A stretch of 64,000 nt of DNA from an uncultured SAR86 cluster bacterium. GTDB lineage: Bacteria; Pseudomonadota; Gammaproteobacteria; Magnimaribacterales; D2472. Position 1 is the stretch's first letter. Each line of letters opens with the position of its first letter. Under the pieces are notes generated by a model. That model was not told the origin of the DNA. It made no database searches and saw nothing but the letters and a program-made list of their open reading frames with translations. The stretch is taken from positions 134,923 to 198,922 of the forward strand of contig CACBPP010000001.1 in NCBI GenBank assembly GCA_902541175.1. The letters are read 5' to 3'. The position numbers and the translations under genes are program-made. Positions 51,791 through 59,101 of this stretch are shown piece by piece.

Positions 51791-52384
51791 CTACTTAGGA
51801 GCCGCTTCAGGTTGAAACATGTAATAACCCTCAAAAGGTATCATTAAATGCGCATATGGTGTGCCTTTAAACATCTGATATGGCTCTCCTTTTGTAAAAT
51901 CTGTTGTAAAGTTTTCTATAGTTTTTGTGTCTTTTGGCATTAGCATTAAATGTGGTCCTGATTCAATAAAGTGATTCATTTTTATTGCATTCTCCTTGTT
52001 ACCACCATATAAAGATGAAACTCTATTGTCTTCTCCAACATCACCATGTAGCATCCATATATAGGCATCTCTCTCCATATTAGGACTAGTGCCATTTACA
52101 TATGCCTCAACCCATTTGAATCCTTCAATATCTGCGCATGACGCATTTGTATCTTGAGCATCTTTGTAACCATCCTCAGGCATTGGCCTTCCTGGAGAAC
52201 ATGTCCAGCCATTGCTACCCTCTTTAAGAATTTTTCCATCATATGTAGCAACTGAAGCATTATCACCTATAAATGATGGCGCAGCTGTAGATAGTGTCTC
52301 AATCATCCATTCATTTGATTTTCCGTCAGCAAAAGCACCAACAGTAAATACCAAACCAATTAAACATAAAAATTTTGAATTCAT
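51791..52384 (-). CDS. Hypothetical exported protein
   Basis: Signal peptide (…TVGAFA/DG). The 197-aa ORF fills the space between neighbours. No family recognised. Confidence 0.5.
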   Translation of the reverse strand: MNSKFLCLIGLVFTVGAFADGKSNEWMIETLSTAAPSFIGDNASVATYDGKILKEGSNGWTCSPGRPMPEDGYKDAQDTNASCADIEGFKWVEAYVNGTSPNMERDAYIWMLHGDVGEDNRVSSLYGGNKENAIKMNHFIESGPHLMLMPKDTKTIENFTTDFTKGEPYQMFKGTPYAHLMIPFEGYYMFQPEAAPK

Positions 52385-52445
52385 TTTATCTCCTCATATA
52401 ACCTTTCTTTAATTCTAAGAAAGAATCTTATTTAATACAAATATA

Positions 52446-53657
52446 TTAATTAAATGTATTTTCAATATGTTTTGTTATAGAGCGAAACATAGCTATATGA
52501 GCTGCTTTTGAGTACTCTCTTTCTGACCTAAACCTATGGTTTGAAGATGTTTTGGCTATAACAACGTTTGATTCTGGATCAACATATATGAATTGATTAA
52601 ATATGCCGTGAGCAGTGAAATCAGTTATGGGATCCCCAGGAACCCACCATTGATAACCGTAACCCCATTCATTTGAAGAAAGCTCTCCTGAATTTGGCAT
52701 TAGGTGGGGAGCGTCTGGTGTATGAGATTGAATAACCCAATCCCTAGGAACAATTTGCTCACCTTCCCAACTTCCTTCATTCAAGTAAAGCTGCCCGAAC
52801 TTGGCAAAGTCACGCAAAGAAGCATTTAGGCCACCAAGCGCCATATCTGTACCAGTATTATCAGCAATGTAATATGCTTCACTTTCTGTACCTATTTTGC
52901 TCCATATTCTTTTATATAAATACTCTCTTAATGGCATATCGGTTACTGATTCAAGAATCATGCCTAATACTTGAGTATCAAGGCTCACATAATGATTATA
53001 TGTTCCTTGTTCTCTTCCATTATTTAGTGTCTTGGCAAAATCTCTGAATGACGATCCTCTTGCGGTTGCTCTTGCAAACCTGTTTATGTCTGAGCCTGGA
53101 TCAGCATAGTCTTCATTGAATTCAATTCCTGAAGACATTTGAAGAAGATTTTTAATTTTTACGTTTTCGTAACCAGTTCCATCAAAATCATTGAGATATT
53201 TCGAAACTTTATCATCAATACTATCAATTAGGCCTTCATCAACAGCTATGCCAAATAAGGCTGATAAGTAAGATTTAGATACTGAAAAAGCTATGTGTTT
53301 GCTATCTTTGGTATTACCGTGCCAATATTGTTCAAATAGCATTTTCCCGTTATGAAGGATTATTAGTCCATCCGTATGGAAATGATCTAATCCATCAGCT
53401 AATTTTAGTTCCTCTCCTTCAAAAAAATAAAATTCTGGTAAATCATAATCCTTTGTTTCAAAAATATATGGTTGTTCTGATGCGGGTATAGGTGAAGATG
53501 TTTCAAAGATTTTATTAATGTTAATGAAATTCTTGGCTATTGATTTTTCGTTATATAAATTAGCTAGTTTGTAGAGCCTAACAATGTTTGGGCTATATAT
53601 AGCTAAGCCTAAAAGTATTAATGCTAATGCTGCAATTAAAAATTTACTCATAATCAT
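52446..53657 (-). CDS. Serine hydrolase, class C beta-lactamase / esterase (PF00144-like) family
   Basis: FSVSKSY (SxxK) motif. N-terminal membrane anchor or signal. About 400 aa. Confidence 0.8.
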   Translation of the reverse strand: MIMSKFLIAALALILLGLAIYSPNIVRLYKLANLYNEKSIAKNFININKIFETSSPIPASEQPYIFETKDYDLPEFYFFEGEELKLADGLDHFHTDGLIILHNGKMLFEQYWHGNTKDSKHIAFSVSKSYLSALFGIAVDEGLIDSIDDKVSKYLNDFDGTGYENVKIKNLLQMSSGIEFNEDYADPGSDINRFARATARGSSFRDFAKTLNNGREQGTYNHYVSLDTQVLGMILESVTDMPLREYLYKRIWSKIGTESEAYYIADNTGTDMALGGLNASLRDFAKFGQLYLNEGSWEGEQIVPRDWVIQSHTPDAPHLMPNSGELSSNEWGYGYQWWVPGDPITDFTAHGIFNQFIYVDPESNVVIAKTSSNHRFRSEREYSKAAHIAMFRSITKHIENTFN

Positions 53658-53669
53658 GATCTCCCCACT

Positions 53670-54029
53670 TTATATCCATTGATCATTTGGAGCAGTTAAT
53701 TCATCAATTTTGTCACCTGTGTTAACTATTCCTCTTGGCTCAACTAACATTATACTAGCTTCATCATTTGCAAAGGGTCTATGTTCTGTCCCTTTTGGAA
53801 CAACTATCATTTCTCCTGCTTCAAGTTTTATCGTTTCAGTTTTAAATTCAATAAACATTTCTCCTTCAATAACAATAAATACCTCATCGGTATCAATATG
53901 CTTGTGCCAGATAAAATCATTTTGAATCTTTACTAACTTAAATTGGTAATCATTAAGTTCCGCAATCACTTTAGGCGACCATTGATCTGAAAACTTTTTA
54001 AACTTGTCTTTAAAATTAACCTTTTTCAT
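53670..54029 (-). CDS. Cupin domain protein
   Basis: WHKHIDTDEVFIVIEGEM...VVPKGTEHRP, the two-motif cupin signature. Confidence 0.75.
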   Translation of the reverse strand: MKKVNFKDKFKKFSDQWSPKVIAELNDYQFKLVKIQNDFIWHKHIDTDEVFIVIEGEMFIEFKTETIKLEAGEMIVVPKGTEHRPFANDEASIMLVEPRGIVNTGDKIDELTAPNDQWI

Positions 54030-54520
54030 TAAAGATTCTCCTTTAGCTCAACCTTTTTTGTTCCATCGTCATTAAACGTTACCGTTATAGGTTTCCATTC
54101 TTCATGGCCGCATATTCTCATCAAACAACCCTCAATTTTCAAATTCCCATTTTGTAATAAATAAATATTTGATTTAAAAGTTCTTCCCCTTCCTGGGTCA
54201 TATATCCTTCCGCCAGATAGCTTTTTTGCTCCATCAATATATTTGAAACCATTTATTAAGTTAATTCCGACAAGCGTTCTATCTCTCAAAGATTTTTCTT
54301 TGTTGTTATTATCAAGTATTGATTTCTGGTCTATTCCTTCTTCAACAAAAATATGTTCAATGGTTGCGCATAATTCATTTTCGCACTTACTAACCAAAAC
54401 GATGGATTGGGATGTCAACCAATATCCAATCATAGAATGATTATTATCAGCATCTAAATTTGAAGATAAAAATATTGCAAGAAAAGTTAAGTAGATATTA
54501 ATTAAATTTCTTTTAGCCAT
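54029..54520 (-). CDS. DUF2147 family periplasmic protein
   Basis: Signal peptide. GYWLT..., GGRIYDPGRGRTFKSNIYLLQNGNLKIEGC and ICGHEEW motifs. Confidence 0.7.
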   Translation of the reverse strand: MAKRNLINIYLTFLAIFLSSNLDADNNHSMIGYWLTSQSIVLVSKCENELCATIEHIFVEEGIDQKSILDNNNKEKSLRDRTLVGINLINGFKYIDGAKKLSGGRIYDPGRGRTFKSNIYLLQNGNLKIEGCLMRICGHEEWKPITVTFNDDGTKKVELKENL

Positions 54521-55082
54521 TTGTTGTCCTATTTAATATATTTTTAATTTTTTTCTCTAATACATTTTTAGATAAACATGTTCTGTATGGATTGTCGCTG
54601 TAGACAGGATTGCCTACCAATAATTCTTTTGGTTTATTAGATTTAAATCTCCATCTTGTTCCTGTCTCTTTTGAAAAAAAAGTGTATCTGATCTCATCAT
54701 TATTAATTCTATATAAATTGTCTTCATTTACTATTTTAAAGGTTATAACAGCTTCTAAATATGAGCCAAATATCCTATCAATATAATTTACATAAACCTC
54801 ATTATTCATAAATCCACAATCAATATATTTACTTATTATCTCTCCTTCAAACTTGACTTCGTTTGATGAAAAAAGGTCTATTTCTTTATTAAGTAGATTC
54901 GATAACTCATCGCCAACACTTTCTAGAACTTCAATTGAATAGGCGTTGCTGGTTTTATCTATTTTTGAGGAGATTTCTATTGAGGGCGGTTTATAAGTAT
55001 TTTTAGATTCTTCAATTTCACAAGAATAAAGAAATATTATTGTAGATAGAAAAATGAAAATATTACGTGAATGTGATCTCAA
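54513..55082 (-). CDS. Hypothetical lipoprotein
   Basis: With a TTG start at 55082 (TTGA overlap with the upstream stop), the N-terminus is MRSHSRNIFIFLSTIIFLYSC, a clean lipobox. The track's GTG at 55103 adds 7 residues. Confidence 0.55.
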   Translation of the reverse strand: MRSHSRNIFIFLSTIIFLYSCEIEESKNTYKPPSIEISSKIDKTSNAYSIEVLESVGDELSNLLNKEIDLFSSNEVKFEGEIISKYIDCGFMNNEVYVNYIDRIFGSYLEAVITFKIVNEDNLYRINNDEIRYTFFSKETGTRWRFKSNKPKELLVGNPVYSDNPYRTCLSKNVLEKKIKNILNRTTNG

Positions 55083-56116
55083 TCTTCCAATACCAAGATC
55101 CACTCTCTGACCATATCAACAGCCTCGGTGTGTGAAAGTGCTCTTCCAGATTCTGGCATCATCACTCCTGGATCAAGAGAAATCATTCTATGTAATAAAA
55201 TTGATTCGTCCGGTTTGCCTGGCACTATTGAATACTTTAAGCCTCCACTGCCTCTACCAGTTGCAACAGGTTTTTTATACAAACCCAAATGAATATCTCT
55301 TGTTTCATCTAGGTGAAGATAAAGACCGGTTGAATTTGCATTTCCTGTTGGAGAGTGGCAATGCCCACAATTTACATCTAAATAAGAACGAACTCTGTCA
55401 TTAATATTTTGGCTTTCGTCTGTCCAATCAACTGGAGAAACTAACTCCATTGGATAATCATCTATTATTTGTCTATTCATCCAATAAGTTAACTGATTAA
55501 ATTCTCCATCATTAAATTCAAACTTTTTATTTAAGTTTCTGGCTTTTGGCCCAATTGGTGTGATCTTATCCTCAGCTGCATGACATTCCTTGCATTGATT
55601 TACGTTTGGCACTCGATATCTAACATCTCTATCGTTGCCCATAAAGTCAGTCCAAGAAACATTAATTGTTTTTCCAGCAATTTTTTTATATGCCTCGTTT
55701 TGTTCTTCATTCCATGCATAAGATACAGCTTCCCAGCCATTTTCTTTCCTTAATAAAAGTCTTGTTTCTAAAAGATTCATTCCTAGATCCGGATTTCTTT
55801 CATCAACAGGATAATAAAATGTTTTTATTAATGCAGAACCGACAGGAAAATTAAAAACCCAATTCTCTTCATATTGAGCTTTTTTATTATTAGGGACATA
55901 TACCCATCTTTGCTTATATGAGTAATCAGAAAATAGTGTTGATATTAGCTCATATGGTATTACATTCTCATGAGGTATCTGTGCTGAATCATCAAGAAAA
56001 AAACCAAACTCTGATAGTTTTGCTGGAAAAGATTCAGAAATAATTAGATTATCATTAATCGCAGTTAGCCTGGTGCACAGAATAAGCACTAGCAATATTT
56101 GAAATTTCTTTTTCAT
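55079..56116 (-). CDS. Periplasmic diheme c-type cytochrome (SO2930 / HNE_0200-type, TIGR03806-like)
   Basis: Signal peptide and two CxxCH motifs (CKECH, CGHCH). Immediately downstream of a parallel beta-helix gene, the described pairing for this family. Confidence 0.7.
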   Translation of the reverse strand: MKKKFQILLVLILCTRLTAINDNLIISESFPAKLSEFGFFLDDSAQIPHENVIPYELISTLFSDYSYKQRWVYVPNNKKAQYEENWVFNFPVGSALIKTFYYPVDERNPDLGMNLLETRLLLRKENGWEAVSYAWNEEQNEAYKKIAGKTINVSWTDFMGNDRDVRYRVPNVNQCKECHAAEDKITPIGPKARNLNKKFEFNDGEFNQLTYWMNRQIIDDYPMELVSPVDWTDESQNINDRVRSYLDVNCGHCHSPTGNANSTGLYLHLDETRDIHLGLYKKPVATGRGSGGLKYSIVPGKPDESILLHRMISLDPGVMMPESGRALSHTEAVDMVREWILVLED

Positions 56117-56121
56117 TATCC

Positions 56122-57276
56122 CTATATACCGTCTATTACAATCGGCTCAAGTGGATTAATGACCCCTTTAAATTCTTTCTTTTCTGTTCGTATAGGATTT
56201 GAAAATCCTAACATGTACTTTATTGGACTGATCGTTAAAAAACTTACATCGTTATTTTCGTCCACCTTTAACTTGTCGTTATTTGGTTGCCCAAAAATCA
56301 TTTGAGAAATTGGAACAACACCATCCCAAAAAATATCTGGCATATTCCCATCACTTATTTCAAATAATGCTTTTGCCAAATCACCTGTTTCAACATCTGG
56401 ATCAAATCCACCAGGGCCATATATATTGTTATGAACCTGAATCCTTCTTGGATGGGGATAATAATTTGGATCATCTGTTTCATCAGAATAAGAGACAATC
56501 GAGAGGTTTACTGTTCCATTTCCACTCATTTCATTATTAAAAACCTCGACATCAGAATTAGCCATAATAATAATTCCCGTGCCTCTTGGAACTTCCCCAA
56601 CAATATTGCCCTCTGGAGCAAAGTTATCAGTATCATTGTCTATTGATTTGTTATCAAAAACTCTTATATGGTGGCCGCCTTGTTGAGGCAGATCAGGTAA
56701 ATCAAATATTAAAATGCCACCAGTATTATGTGAAGCAAGATTGTTGTATACATCTGCATAGTAAGAATTTTCTATTTCAATTCCAGCTACGTTATATTGA
56801 GCAGTACTATTTCTAACAATAATGTTCTTAGATTGTCCTACGTATATTCCAGCATCTGATGCGCCTATGGCAACACACCCATCAATAAGAACATCTTCAG
56901 ACTCAACTGGATAAAATCCATATGCACCATTTGTGCTCTTTGGTCCGCCTGTCCACTCTGTTCTTAAGTTAATCATATTGATGCCTTTTGATCCTATTAC
57001 CTTTAGAGCATCACCTTTTGCATCCAATATTGCGAAATCTTTTAACGTCACTTTATTTGAAGTTACTAAAAATCCTTGAGCTCCAGACTGTTGATTTTTG
57101 AAATCTAATATAGTTTTATCCAAACCCTCGCCAATTATTGTCACGTTATCTACATCAAGAGAAAGTCCATCTTCAAATAAATAGTAACCAGACTTAATCA
57201 AAAGAGTATCCCCTTCTGACATAAGTATTAGAGCTTCTTGCAGTTCTTCTTGAGCATTTTCTCCTGGATTTATCAC
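56122..57276 (-). CDS. Parallel beta-helix repeat protein (NosD-like, TIGR03805-like); true start probably upstream (see findings)
   Basis: Repetitive G-x-I/V-x-N beta-helix turns (NIIVRNSTAQYNVAGIEIENSYYADVYNNLASHNTGGILI...). Coordinates follow the track's GTG. An in-frame signal peptide lies upstream, up to about 57372. Confidence 0.7.
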   Translation of the reverse strand: MINPGENAQEELQEALILMSEGDTLLIKSGYYLFEDGLSLDVDNVTIIGEGLDKTILDFKNQQSGAQGFLVTSNKVTLKDFAILDAKGDALKVIGSKGINMINLRTEWTGGPKSTNGAYGFYPVESEDVLIDGCVAIGASDAGIYVGQSKNIIVRNSTAQYNVAGIEIENSYYADVYNNLASHNTGGILIFDLPDLPQQGGHHIRVFDNKSIDNDTDNFAPEGNIVGEVPRGTGIIIMANSDVEVFNNEMSGNGTVNLSIVSYSDETDDPNYYPHPRRIQVHNNIYGPGGFDPDVETGDLAKALFEISDGNMPDIFWDGVVPISQMIFGQPNNDKLKVDENNDVSFLTISPIKYMLGFSNPIRTEKKEFKGVINPLEPIVIDGI

Positions 57277-57438
57277 TATTTCTTTTGCGTATAGCTGAAC
57301 GCAAAAAACAGCTATGACTGAGAGAATACATGCCTCAAATAAAAAATTATTTTTAACTTTCCTTAAAAAAATACTAATTCCCCTATATGTAATAATTATT
57401 GTATTAGAAATGTCTTTGAGAAAAAAGAAAAGCTTTAA

Positions 57439-57903
57439 CTATGGCAGTATTTCGACATTAATAATTTCTGAAAGAATTGGGTTATATTTTTGGTCTAACC
57501 TATTTCTATTGATGGGTTTATGTTCATAGTCACCTATCGCAAGTTGAAGAGAATATTTTCCAGGAGGAAGCGAGAGCTCTGCTTCTTTTTGACCACCACC
57601 AAAATGGAGAATATTTGCTCCATATGGTATCGGTTGATTTTCAAAACTTTCAACTTTATAGGCATTATTAATAATTAAATGATGATGTCCGCTAACTATA
57701 CAATTATCTTGTTTCTCAACAACTATACCTGCAGGACTAATATTTATATTTTTTGTTCCAAACTCTACCTTTAGTTTTTGATTCTCACTAACAAAACCGT
57801 CATGTGGACTTAAAAAGAAGAGCTCAATATCATCACAATTATCTGAGCTATCAAAAGAAAAAGCTAAAGGTGATACAAAAAGAAAATATAAGATATGTTT
57901 CAT
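57439..57903 (-). CDS. DUF4399 family exported protein
   Basis: Signal peptide, a GHHHLIIN motif and LHFGGGQ, characteristic of DUF4399. Confidence 0.65.
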   Translation of the reverse strand: MKHILYFLFVSPLAFSFDSSDNCDDIELFFLSPHDGFVSENQKLKVEFGTKNINISPAGIVVEKQDNCIVSGHHHLIINNAYKVESFENQPIPYGANILHFGGGQKEAELSLPPGKYSLQLAIGDYEHKPINRNRLDQKYNPILSEIINVEILP

Positions 57904-57905
57904 AA

Positions 57906-58739
57906 TTAATTTTTAGTTTTTGGTGGTCCTAATAAAAAATAGATTGCTTCGGTAAAGTTTGAGGCGTTTTTCATGTTGTTAAAAATATCTATCCATCCCA
58001 TAAAAGTTATTTTCGTTGGATTAAAAGTATTCACATTTCTTACTAAACCAAACTTTACTGGCTCGCCTTCCGGTTCAAATGTACCAAACATTCTATCCCA
58101 GATAATTAATAAATTTCCATAATTTTTATCTATATACTGGCTATTGGCTCCGTGATGAACCCTGTGATGAGATGGAGTATTAAAAATCCATTCAAGCGGG
58201 CCAAGCTTGCCAACAATTTGTGTGTGTCCAACAATTCCCCATAGTGTGCTGACTACACCTGCCACCGCAATTATGGTTGGATCGAAACCTACTAAAGGCA
58301 AAATCATAAAAAATGGTAATTTTGATATTGGGCCAAACCAAGCCTGTCTAAAAGATACAGCAAAGTTCATTTCTTCACTTGAGTGATGGCTCATATGAAT
58401 AGCCCATAAGAAATTTACTCTGTGGGAAATACGATGATAAAAATAAAATACTAAATCAATCATGACAAAAGTTAGAATCCATAAAGCCCAAACTGGCATC
58501 AGTGCTGATAAGTTAAATAACTTAAATTGGAACAAATAAAAATGTAGCGCTAATGTAATCCCCTTTAGAGCAAACACCATGAGAATATTTCCTGTTAAAA
58601 GTCCAATTGTGCAAAGGGTGTCATCTTTTTTATAAAGATTTTTGTTATAAATACTGGAGAAAAATACTTCAATAAGAATCATAGCCAGAACTATTGGAGC
58701 TCCAATTGCGTAAACTTGGTTTATTGTTAAATCTGTCAT
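57906..58739 (-). CDS. Fatty acid hydroxylase / sterol desaturase superfamily membrane di-iron oxygenase
   Basis: Histidine boxes HRISHR, HMSHHSS and HHRVHH. 4-5 TM segments. Confidence 0.8.
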   Translation of the reverse strand: MTDLTINQVYAIGAPIVLAMILIEVFFSSIYNKNLYKKDDTLCTIGLLTGNILMVFALKGITLALHFYLFQFKLFNLSALMPVWALWILTFVMIDLVFYFYHRISHRVNFLWAIHMSHHSSEEMNFAVSFRQAWFGPISKLPFFMILPLVGFDPTIIAVAGVVSTLWGIVGHTQIVGKLGPLEWIFNTPSHHRVHHGANSQYIDKNYGNLLIIWDRMFGTFEPEGEPVKFGLVRNVNTFNPTKITFMGWIDIFNNMKNASNFTEAIYFLLGPPKTKN

Positions 58740-58744
58740 ATTTA

Positions 58745-59101
58745 TTATTCTTCTGATTCCTCTAAAACTTTTTTAGGCAAATCAAAACTATTTCTCTTTA
58801 GTGTCCAGTCTTTTTTAACATTTTGTATGAGTAATTTACCATAAAGATGTGGAAATTTTCCTAATCTGCTGCCTGATTTAGCCTTTTCAAAAACTATTTC
58901 ATCTTTAATGGAATCTTGATCTATTTCTAACAAAATAACTTTCTTAGAGTTTTTAAAATATAAATGAAGTGTCAAGGCAAGCTGTTTTGATGTTGATAAA
59001 TGTATAAAGCCATCATCATTATCTAACTTGGTTACTACATAACCAAGGGAGACTGCATGTTCCCACTCTTCTTCCGTCAAAACTTTATAAATAGAGCTCA
59101 T
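58745..59101 (-). CDS. DUF952 family protein
   Basis: IYKVLTEEEW, GFIHLST..Q and FPHLYG motifs. Confidence 0.7.
   Translation of the reverse strand: MSSIYKVLTEEEWEHAVSLGYVVTKLDNDDGFIHLSTSKQLALTLHLYFKNSKKVILLEIDQDSIKDEIVFEKAKSGSRLGKFPHLYGKLLIQNVKKDWTLKRNSFDLPKKVLEESEE

Follow-up and report, generated by a model that had tools for sequence, protein, structure and literature searches.

A beta-helix/dihaem cytochrome c gene pair in a SAR86 genome: a catalogued two-gene cassette that may form a self-contained periplasmic redox enzyme

The uncultured SAR86-cluster gammaproteobacterium represented by GenBank assembly GCA_902541175.1 carries, on contig CACBPP010000001.1, two adjacent minus-strand genes encoding a parallel beta-helix protein and a dihaem cytochrome c, and it is this pair and the genes around it that are considered here. 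The stretch analysed (positions 134,923 to 198,922 of the contig, 64,000 nucleotides, hereafter the window, whose coordinates are used throughout) has a GC content of about 32%, and proteins with 99% identity to its cytochrome are encoded in four SAR86 assemblies from single cells or metagenomes. In the direction of transcription the locus reads FA_hydroxylase, DUF4399, beta-helix, cytochrome, lipoprotein, DUF2147 and cupin. An earlier reading, made from the sequence and a list of open reading frames (the original prediction), had taken the pair and three more exported proteins, with the cupin and the oxygenase beside them, for one uncharacterised periplasmic machine. Its gene order, its motifs and the junction distances it listed were all reproduced when checked against the open reading frame list and the sequence, and every family it named (TIGR03805, TIGR03806, DUF4399, DUF2147, cupin and FA_hydroxylase) was confirmed. 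The unit itself, however, must be redrawn. At roughly even odds (a probability of about 0.5), the two-gene cassette alone is the functional unit, its products forming one obligate periplasmic beta-helix/cytochrome complex that acts as a self-contained redox enzyme, and the neighbouring genes are not parts of it.

Families were assigned by hidden Markov model (HMM) scans of NCBIfam and Pfam against curated cut-offs or gathering scores. The beta-helix gene, read from a probable ATT start (56122-57372, minus strand, as are all genes named here; 416 residues), scores 409.6 bits against TIGR03805, for which the cut-off is 141.5, and covers profile positions 1-314 of 314. The cytochrome gene (55079-56116; 345 residues, with a signal peptide) follows after a gap of 5 nt and scores 363.2 bits against TIGR03806 (cut-off 313.3; profile positions 2-312 of 314), the model that NCBI names 'SO2930 family diheme c-type cytochrome'. 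With scores above both cut-offs, the adjacency of the genes and two CxxCH motifs in common, the window pair is a bona fide member of the catalogued TIGR03805/TIGR03806 cassette, as the original prediction had proposed, and not a new kind of system. Its core is no different from that of the SO2930/HNE_0200-family cassette, to which the window adds the ATT start and a lineage-specific upstream motif and set of neighbours. The accompanying statement, that the cassette is without an assigned function, also stands: full-text literature searches found no published function for the TIGR03805/TIGR03806, SO2930 or HNE_0200 pair, and in that literature SO_2930 occurs only as an entry in the c-type cytochrome table of a network-analysis paper (PMC4837345).

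The association of the two genes is close to absolute. Eighty genome loci encoding relatives of the window cytochrome at 46-99% identity, with up to 10 kb of flank on each side, were compared by tblastn and by clustering of their open reading frames; represented among them are SAR86, SAR92, OCS116/PS1, Rhizobiaceae, Hoeflea, Kordiimonas, Woeseiaceae and Chitinophagales. The beta-helix gene stands directly 5' of the cytochrome gene in 78 of the 80, the other two being cut by contig ends. The family as a whole comprises 758 clusters at 50% identity (E <= 1e-30 in an exhaustive search of representative proteins) and spans Proteobacteria, Bacteroidota, Planctomycetes, Myxococcota and Binatia; among its top 150 representatives are about 15 proteins of 730-812 residues. 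Three of these, the fusions P0224, P0248 and P0265, were checked: each has TIGR03805 in its N-terminal and TIGR03806 in its C-terminal part and exceeds both cut-offs, so that the order of domains repeats the order of genes. A search with P0224 returned 120 relatives, of which 115 were aligned: 78 are beta-helix-cytochrome fusions, found in Myxococcota, Binatia, Kryptonia and Planctomycetes and including one from the cultured Gimesia maris, and the remaining 37, of 840-900 residues, have no cytochrome domain. Five of the latter were scanned (P0426, P0401, P0383, P0413 and P0430; 870-900 residues) and each proved to be a tandem of two beta-helices, and one further relative left out of the alignment (P0371, 1318 residues) joins two beta-helices to a cytochrome. 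At one locus (L084) a 440-residue gene without a Pfam match begins 4 nt after a tandem beta-helix gene and may be the cytochrome.

Modelled with AlphaFold2 from the alignment of 115 sequences, the 812-residue fusion forms one rigid body, with a predicted local distance difference test score (pLDDT) of 91.6 and a predicted template modelling score (pTM) of 0.90. The segment between its domains (approximately residues 390-490) lies mostly above 90, apart from one ten-residue block at 78, and the model thus indicates that the two domains are held in a fixed assembly. In six of the eight genomic contexts examined the genes beside the fused gene are unrelated, which argues that no third partner is required, and across these eight contexts no general recurrent partner was found beyond the synteny of close lineages. 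Two candidates were considered and rejected: an ALDH-like gene with a TetR regulator, which recurs only in two related Planctomycete contigs, and an SDR gene, which recurs only in two related loci (L082 from Binatia, and L087, where the flanking genes are the same). In the first of these settings (L081 and L085, Gimesia maris and a related contig) an unusually long ALDH-like gene of 565-575 codons precedes the fused gene by about 40 nt, with the TetR gene divergent. Divergent TetR genes also flank the pair in three Rhizobiaceae loci (L073, L075 and L077) and in alphaproteobacterial locus L076, an arrangement that may reflect inducible expression.

The cytochrome combines familiar haem-binding motifs with an unfamiliar fold. 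After a hydrophobic signal peptide at residues 1-20, the AlphaFold model of the window protein (pLDDT 87.9 and pTM 0.86, from a 95-sequence alignment) has a beta-rich N-terminal domain, approximately residues 40-169, that runs directly into the helix of the first haem motif, CKECH (residues 175-179; 55580-55594); a mostly helical or coil region then carries the second, CGHCH (residues 250-254; 55355-55369), and M320-P321. Both CxxCH motifs are invariant in 100 sequences and haem attachment is predicted from them. The invariant residues that could concern haem are limited to C175/C178/H179, C250/C253/H254 and M320-P321, whereas H252, M319 and H329 are lost in some fusions. Because M320 is the only invariant candidate for an axial ligand besides the two CxxCH histidines, haem 2 is probably His/Met-ligated with M320 as the likely axial methionine; for haem 1 no sixth ligand is conserved family-wide. 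Foldseek found no match to the fold in the PDB at E <= 1e-3, and PDB searches by single sequence and by profile gave no useful match either. Of the weak Foldseek matches, only those to cytochrome P460 (2je2) and to cytochrome c'-beta (9hqt, 7zqz and 7zs4) involve haem proteins; their E values are 0.4-1.4 and their probabilities 0.12-0.18, they superpose at a root-mean-square deviation of 4-7 A over 84-115 columns, and the resemblance is a hint only. PSCyt1 weakly matched the haem-2 domain of homologue P0248 (E 6e-5) and is not significant in the window protein. A homologue search with a 22-sequence alignment of the cytochrome returned SAR86 sequences only, at 76-99% identity.

The beta-helix protein, matched in Pfam by Beta_helix and NosD domains besides TIGR03805, points toward carbohydrate enzymes in its structure. 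The closest solved folds of its domain in Foldseek are the A-modules of the mannuronan C5-epimerases AlgE4 and AlgE6 (E 2e-9; about 20% identity to AlgE4), followed by an alginate epimerase/lyase, RbmB, PL6 alginate lyases, chondroitinase B, DFA-IIIase and polygalacturonases, the alginate enzymes and chondroitinase B falling between E 2e-9 and 1e-5. Across 137 sequences (416-residue numbering) the invariant positions are D173, E199, E201, D207, D350, an Asn ladder and several Tyr, and the acidic cluster lies, as in the alginate enzymes, on successive turns. This set is compatible with a groove that binds carbohydrate or cations. His, Cys, Met, Lys and Arg are nowhere invariant in these sequences, which disfavours both a NosD-like metal site and a classical lyase base. 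The likeness to the alginate enzymes, whose hallmarks are catalytic base and acid residues (Lys/Arg in PL6, Tyr/Asp/His in AlgE) and a Ca2+ site, has its limits: there is no match at the level of sequence, no invariant Lys, Arg or His is available as base in the window protein, and the alginate enzymes are not known to have a cytochrome partner. The AlgE motif YGFDPHE would correspond to AYGFYPVE in the window beta-helix, with the Asp and the His lost. A sequence-profile search of the PDB with the beta-helix gave only weak matches, to phi29 gp12 (E 9e-4) and to a pectinesterase, and detected neither AlgE nor NosD, the latter absent even at E <= 10.

The start of the beta-helix gene deserves attention in its own right. 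The first canonical start, a GTG at 57276, would yield a protein of 384 residues (56122-57276) without a signal peptide, yet no stop interrupts the frame as far back as the DUF4399 stop codon, and that stretch encodes a typical signal peptide, IFLRKVKNNFLFEACILSVIAVFCVQLYA, with predicted cleavage before KEIV. ATG, GTG and TTG are all missing from the frame 5' of the GTG; an ATT at 57372, however, sits 6 nt past a Shine-Dalgarno-like GGGGA (57379-57383). At the same position, 5-7 nt past the GGGGA, an ATT or ATC followed by TTT is kept in L001-L014, L018, L020 and L024, with GGGG(A) conserved in aligned relatives, and where such relatives have canonical starts these lie within the hydrophobic core of the signal peptide. 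In sister subclades the gene begins with ATG and the signal peptides are equivalent. Since no canonical start precedes the signal peptide and ATT or ATC is conserved in relatives, the gene appears to start at the near-cognate ATT 57372, and a conserved AUU or AUC start suggests control at the level of translation. The statement in the original prediction that all exported products carry signal peptides or lipoboxes is accordingly right for the cytochrome, DUF4399, DUF2147 and the lipoprotein, and right for the beta-helix only if the ATT is used and not the GTG. The beta-helix frame is also the DUF4399 frame and stays open past the DUF4399 TAG stop (57439-57441 down to 57276) in the window and in L001-L009; read-through of this TAG to join the two proteins was entertained and rejected, as L010-L014 and similar loci have in-frame stops in the spacer and yet keep the ATT or ATC start.

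DUF4399 and the beta-helix gene are separated by 162 nt if the first canonical start is used and by 66 nt if the probable ATT is. The original prediction had not mentioned this spacer, and no other between same-strand genes in the stretch is as large. Within it, about 15 nt 5' of the GGGGA, lies the 13-nt TTTCTAATACAAT (57398-57410, minus strand), invariant in 10 aligned SAR86 loci amid a diverging spacer. In 1.49 Mb searched, each of 19 loci has one and only one exact copy of the 12-mer TTCTAATACAAT, in every case at this place, and the window has a single copy. The motif looks like a candidate -10 element (TACAAT) or an operator, and it suggests a separate promoter for the pair, apart from the transcription of FA_hydroxylase and DUF4399. 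A scan for promoter and terminator consensus sequences was uninformative: it gave fewer promoter-like sites than chance would and only a slight excess of terminator-like ones. Rfam matched no RNA family anywhere in the window.

On either side of the pair lie the genes that the original prediction had drawn into the machine. Upstream are a membrane protein of the di-iron oxygenase family FA_hydroxylase (57906-58739; PF04116, 105.4 bits), which falls well short of the OlsE model (76 bits against NF052566, cut-off 475), and, after a gap of 2 nt, DUF4399 (57439-57903; PF14347, 75 bits against 28), with a signal peptide and the motif GHHHL at residue 72. Downstream of the cytochrome come a lipoprotein of 189 residues from TTG 55082 (54513-55082; a GTG alternative gives 54513-55103), which matches nothing in Pfam or NCBIfam and has a lipobox cysteine conserved in 19 relatives; DUF2147 (54029-54520; PF09917, 74.9 bits against 27), with a signal peptide; and a 119-residue cupin (53670-54029; Cupin_2, PF07883, 46.7 bits). 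The four Pfam families among these all reach their gathering scores. Given the TTG start, cytochrome and lipoprotein overlap by 4 nt, the TTGA holding the stop of the one and the start of the other; lipoprotein and DUF2147 overlap by 8 nt, and DUF2147 and cupin by 1 nt. PDB sequence searches gave nothing useful for DUF4399 or DUF2147. DUF2147 has been described as lipocalin-like, citing the HP1028 structure (bioRxiv 10.1101/2025.07.29.667474, a hopanoid-transport preprint). With an FA_hydroxylase and, next in the open reading frame list after the cupin, a beta-lactamase-fold protein (52446-53657) that may be an esterase, DUF2147 fits a lipid-related neighbourhood, but one whose genes are not tied to the pair.

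Could these seven genes nevertheless encode a single periplasmic machine for redox chemistry, metal handling or lipid oxidation? The idea draws on the junctions, which run from the 8-nt overlap to the 5-nt gap and include the TTGA overlap, on the export or membrane location of most of the products, and on the lipid associations of DUF2147 and FA_hydroxylase. Such junctions, however, are the norm in this genome: the coding fraction of the window is 97.7%, the median same-strand spacer is 2 nt, and of 60 same-strand junctions 45 are of 10 nt or less and 27 are overlaps. Tight packing is no special feature of the pair's neighbourhood, and the spacing of genes is unusable for calling operons here. 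The conserved promoter-like motif moreover falls between DUF4399 and the pair, and the cupin, whose N-terminus MKKVNFKDKFKKFSDQW has no hydrophobic stretch and no signal peptide, must be cytoplasmic for that reason.

FA_hydroxylase, DUF4399, lipoprotein, DUF2147 and cupin adjoin the pair only in the 28 loci (L001-L028) of the window's own SAR86 subclade. When profile HMMs built from the subclade copies were searched against the 52 loci outside it, within 10 kb of the pair and at E 1e-3, DUF4399, DUF2147, cupin and lipoprotein were found in none, and the sole trace of the set is an FA_hydroxylase homologue about 4 kb from the pair in L058. The pair elsewhere has other company: a NUDIX hydrolase and an ammonium transporter in OCS116/PS1, the divergent TetR and a CTP synthase in Rhizobiaceae, a TonB-dependent receptor in Kordiimonas. 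In most loci of other SAR86 clades (L029-L056) a five-gene MacA/MacB-type ABC exporter (HlyD, an ATPase and three FtsX permeases) comes next after the pair or one gene further on, with a beta-lactamase-fold gene about 8.6 kb downstream; in the window's subclade the place of that transporter is taken by lipoprotein, DUF2147 and cupin. Within the subclade the set is itself variable. The lipoprotein is missing in seven loci (L015, L016, L021, L022, L025, L026 and L028); an opposite-strand 484-residue peptidase gene parts cupin from DUF2147 in L015, L016, L019 and L023; an FMO-like gene parts FA_hydroxylase from DUF4399 in L021, L022, L025, L026 and L028. In L015 (2385-3383) and L024 (cluster C131) the stand-alone DUF4399 gives way at the same position to a 332-residue Endonuclease_NS-DUF4399 fusion, a secreted protein that joins a non-specific DNA/RNA endonuclease to DUF4399, which hints that DUF4399 is a generic exported module, possibly metal-binding.

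A further argument for the larger assembly is that, of the 28 subclade loci, 24 have DUF4399 (as a domain) 5' and DUF2147 3' of the pair, DUF2147 being present in 25 of the 28 and in 0 of the other 52. Two of the four exceptions are cut before DUF2147 (L012 and L024), one has neither gene (L027), and one has a 217-residue gene between DUF4399 and the beta-helix (L019). In those subclade loci that reach far enough, however, unrelated flanks are just as syntenic, out to an ALDH gene on one side and a VOC gene on the other, the whole 13 kb being conserved in order, and in other lineages the fused beta-helix-cytochrome gene stands alone. The original prediction had named a lack of co-conservation as grounds for rejecting it, and the accessory genes are not co-conserved across the 80 loci. 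The claim that DUF4399, lipoprotein, DUF2147, cupin and the di-iron oxygenase are machine parts and not lineage-specific neighbours is thus not supported, and for the family as a whole the seven-gene machine is largely refuted; together with its weaker form, in which lipoprotein and DUF2147 serve the pair as subclade-specific accessories, we regard it as distinctly unlikely.

The self-contained two-gene enzyme is the reading that best accommodates the evidence, and all four rivals discussed here are less likely. The general role given to the locus in the original prediction, periplasmic redox chemistry, remains reasonable for the pair itself, which to judge from its sequences is exported and haem-bearing. 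In the scheme that we propose, the CASH-type beta-helix would bind a carbohydrate-like or anionic substrate at the acidic cluster D173, E199, E201 and D207; haem 1, placed after the beta-sandwich and lacking a family-wide sixth ligand, would be the reaction centre or the point of electron entry; and haem 2, His/Met-ligated and PSCyt1-like, would pass electrons on to soluble cytochrome c and, by way of it, to the respiratory chain. A uronate or a polysaccharide-type compound is the best guess for the substrate from the modelled fold, at low confidence. Some homologues append to the cytochrome a C-terminal monohaem TIGR02603 domain, annotated as the built-in acceptor of Planctomycete-type dehydrogenases, and such variants speak for a sustained exchange of electrons with the respiratory chain. 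The probable likeness of such an enzyme to flavocytochrome c sulfide dehydrogenase, SoxAX/SoxCD, TsdAB and the TIGR02603 Planctomycete dehydrogenases is one of layout, a catalytic or substrate-binding subunit joined to a dihaem relay serving soluble cytochromes. The window pair shares no homology with them and has no flavin, molybdenum or pyrroloquinoline quinone domain, so that the catalytic cofactor, if there is one, must be haem.

Several observations weigh against this scheme. No cofactor besides haem is evident, and no conserved neighbour hints at a substrate. Beta-helix folds are promiscuous, so the fold neighbours leave the chemistry unfixed, and the likeness of the N-terminal domain and haem 1 to P460 and c'-beta is weak (E 0.4-1.4, probability below 0.2). 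The promoter and AUU-start interpretations are based on conservation only. Within the subclade, finally, DUF4399 upstream and DUF2147 downstream are stable and the lipoprotein start overlaps the cytochrome stop, and a local accessory role is possible. The boldest version of the proposal is speculative and improbable: the pair would represent a new class of periplasmic haem enzyme, with a cytochrome fold absent from the PDB and a five-coordinate haem set against the acidic groove of a carbohydrate-type beta-helix, oxidising a uronate, a polysaccharide or another abundant marine compound and passing the electrons to the respiratory chain of SAR86 and of many other aerobic heterotrophs, its synthesis in SAR86 being throttled by the AUU or AUC start.

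A quite different division of labour is that of MauG and MbnH, in which the dihaem protein would use hydrogen peroxide or O2 to modify residues of the beta-helix into a cofactor or a metal site and the modified beta-helix would then be the enzyme. The window pair resembles MauG with MADH and MbnH with MbnP in being a gene pair of a dihaem c-type protein and a non-haem partner, and the strict pairing, the fusions and the rigid complex would all suit such a relationship, as would the absence of a conserved sixth ligand on haem 1 and the invariant Y151, Y154 and Y177 of the beta-helix and W128, Y133 and W135 of the cytochrome, which could carry a radical. The cytochrome, however, shows no CCP_MauG match in the Pfam and NCBIfam scans at E <= 0.01 and resembles nothing in the PDB by sequence or fold; a maturase permanently fused to its own substrate, as the fusions would require, is unusual; and the variants with the extra TIGR02603 relay haem suggest sustained electron flow over one-off modification. 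This reading is no likelier than the seven-gene machine.

More doubtful still is the view that the cytochrome is a small-molecule haem enzyme or sensor akin to P460 and c'-beta, its haem 1 binding nitric oxide, hydroxylamine, carbon monoxide or a similar ligand and the beta-helix serving only as scaffold or anchor. These families supply the only haem proteins among the weak structural matches, the model shares with them a beta-sandwich followed directly by the CxxCH helix, and haem 1 lacks a conserved distal ligand; the matches are nonetheless far from significant, the overall fold of the window protein has no PDB counterpart, Pfam finds no P460 domain, and the constant attachment of a large beta-helix with an invariant acidic cluster would be left unexplained.

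Last and least probable is the analogy with NosD that the original prediction had raised, in which the beta-helix would hand a metal or sulfur species to a metalloenzyme while the cytochrome performed redox steps, much as NosDFY delivers copper and sulfur to nitrous oxide reductase: an exported right-handed beta-helix in the periplasm, a Pfam NosD/CASH match (PF05048, 35 bits against a cut-off of 23.6), a weak match to TIGR04247 over the first 170 residues (E 2e-9) and the ABC transporter that follows the pair in another SAR86 clade are outweighed by a TIGR04247 score of 36.4 bits against a cut-off of 300, the want of any conserved metal ligand, the absence of NosD structures from the top 50 Foldseek matches, the failure to find nosZ, nosF, nosY or nosL among the ten open reading frames scanned (51791-59101) or beside the pair in related loci, and the nature of the transporter, which is not of the NosFY ABC-2 type and is absent elsewhere.

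Returning to the two-gene enzyme, what is new relative to the catalogued cassette is that the unit is delimited to two proteins or to one fused protein, accessory genes being unneeded; that Rosetta-stone fusions and a confident model of the assembly hold it together; that an alginate-epimerase-like affinity replaces the analogy with NosD; that the cytochrome fold is absent from the PDB; and that SAR86 copies have an upstream motif of their own and a near-cognate start codon. SAR86 is among the most abundant bacterial groups of the surface ocean and the cassette is widespread. Should the pair prove to be a new cytochrome-linked oxidoreductase of carbohydrates or small molecules, models of marine carbon cycling would gain one more way for cells to obtain energy or process substrates. 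Biochemistry need not wait for SAR86, as tractable sources are at hand in Gimesia maris (fusion P0454), in Shewanella oneidensis, whose SO2930 is the namesake of the family, and in Kordiimonas.

One further gene of the window merits a remark of its own. At 51791-52384 (minus strand) lies an exported protein of 197 residues without a family match, of which two very different versions exist among otherwise near-identical SAR86 genomes (one in L001, L005 and L008-L011, the other in L002-L004), about 45-50% identical between versions as against 97% otherwise. The genes flanking it remain more than 90% identical, so that this gene is locally hypervariable or has been replaced.

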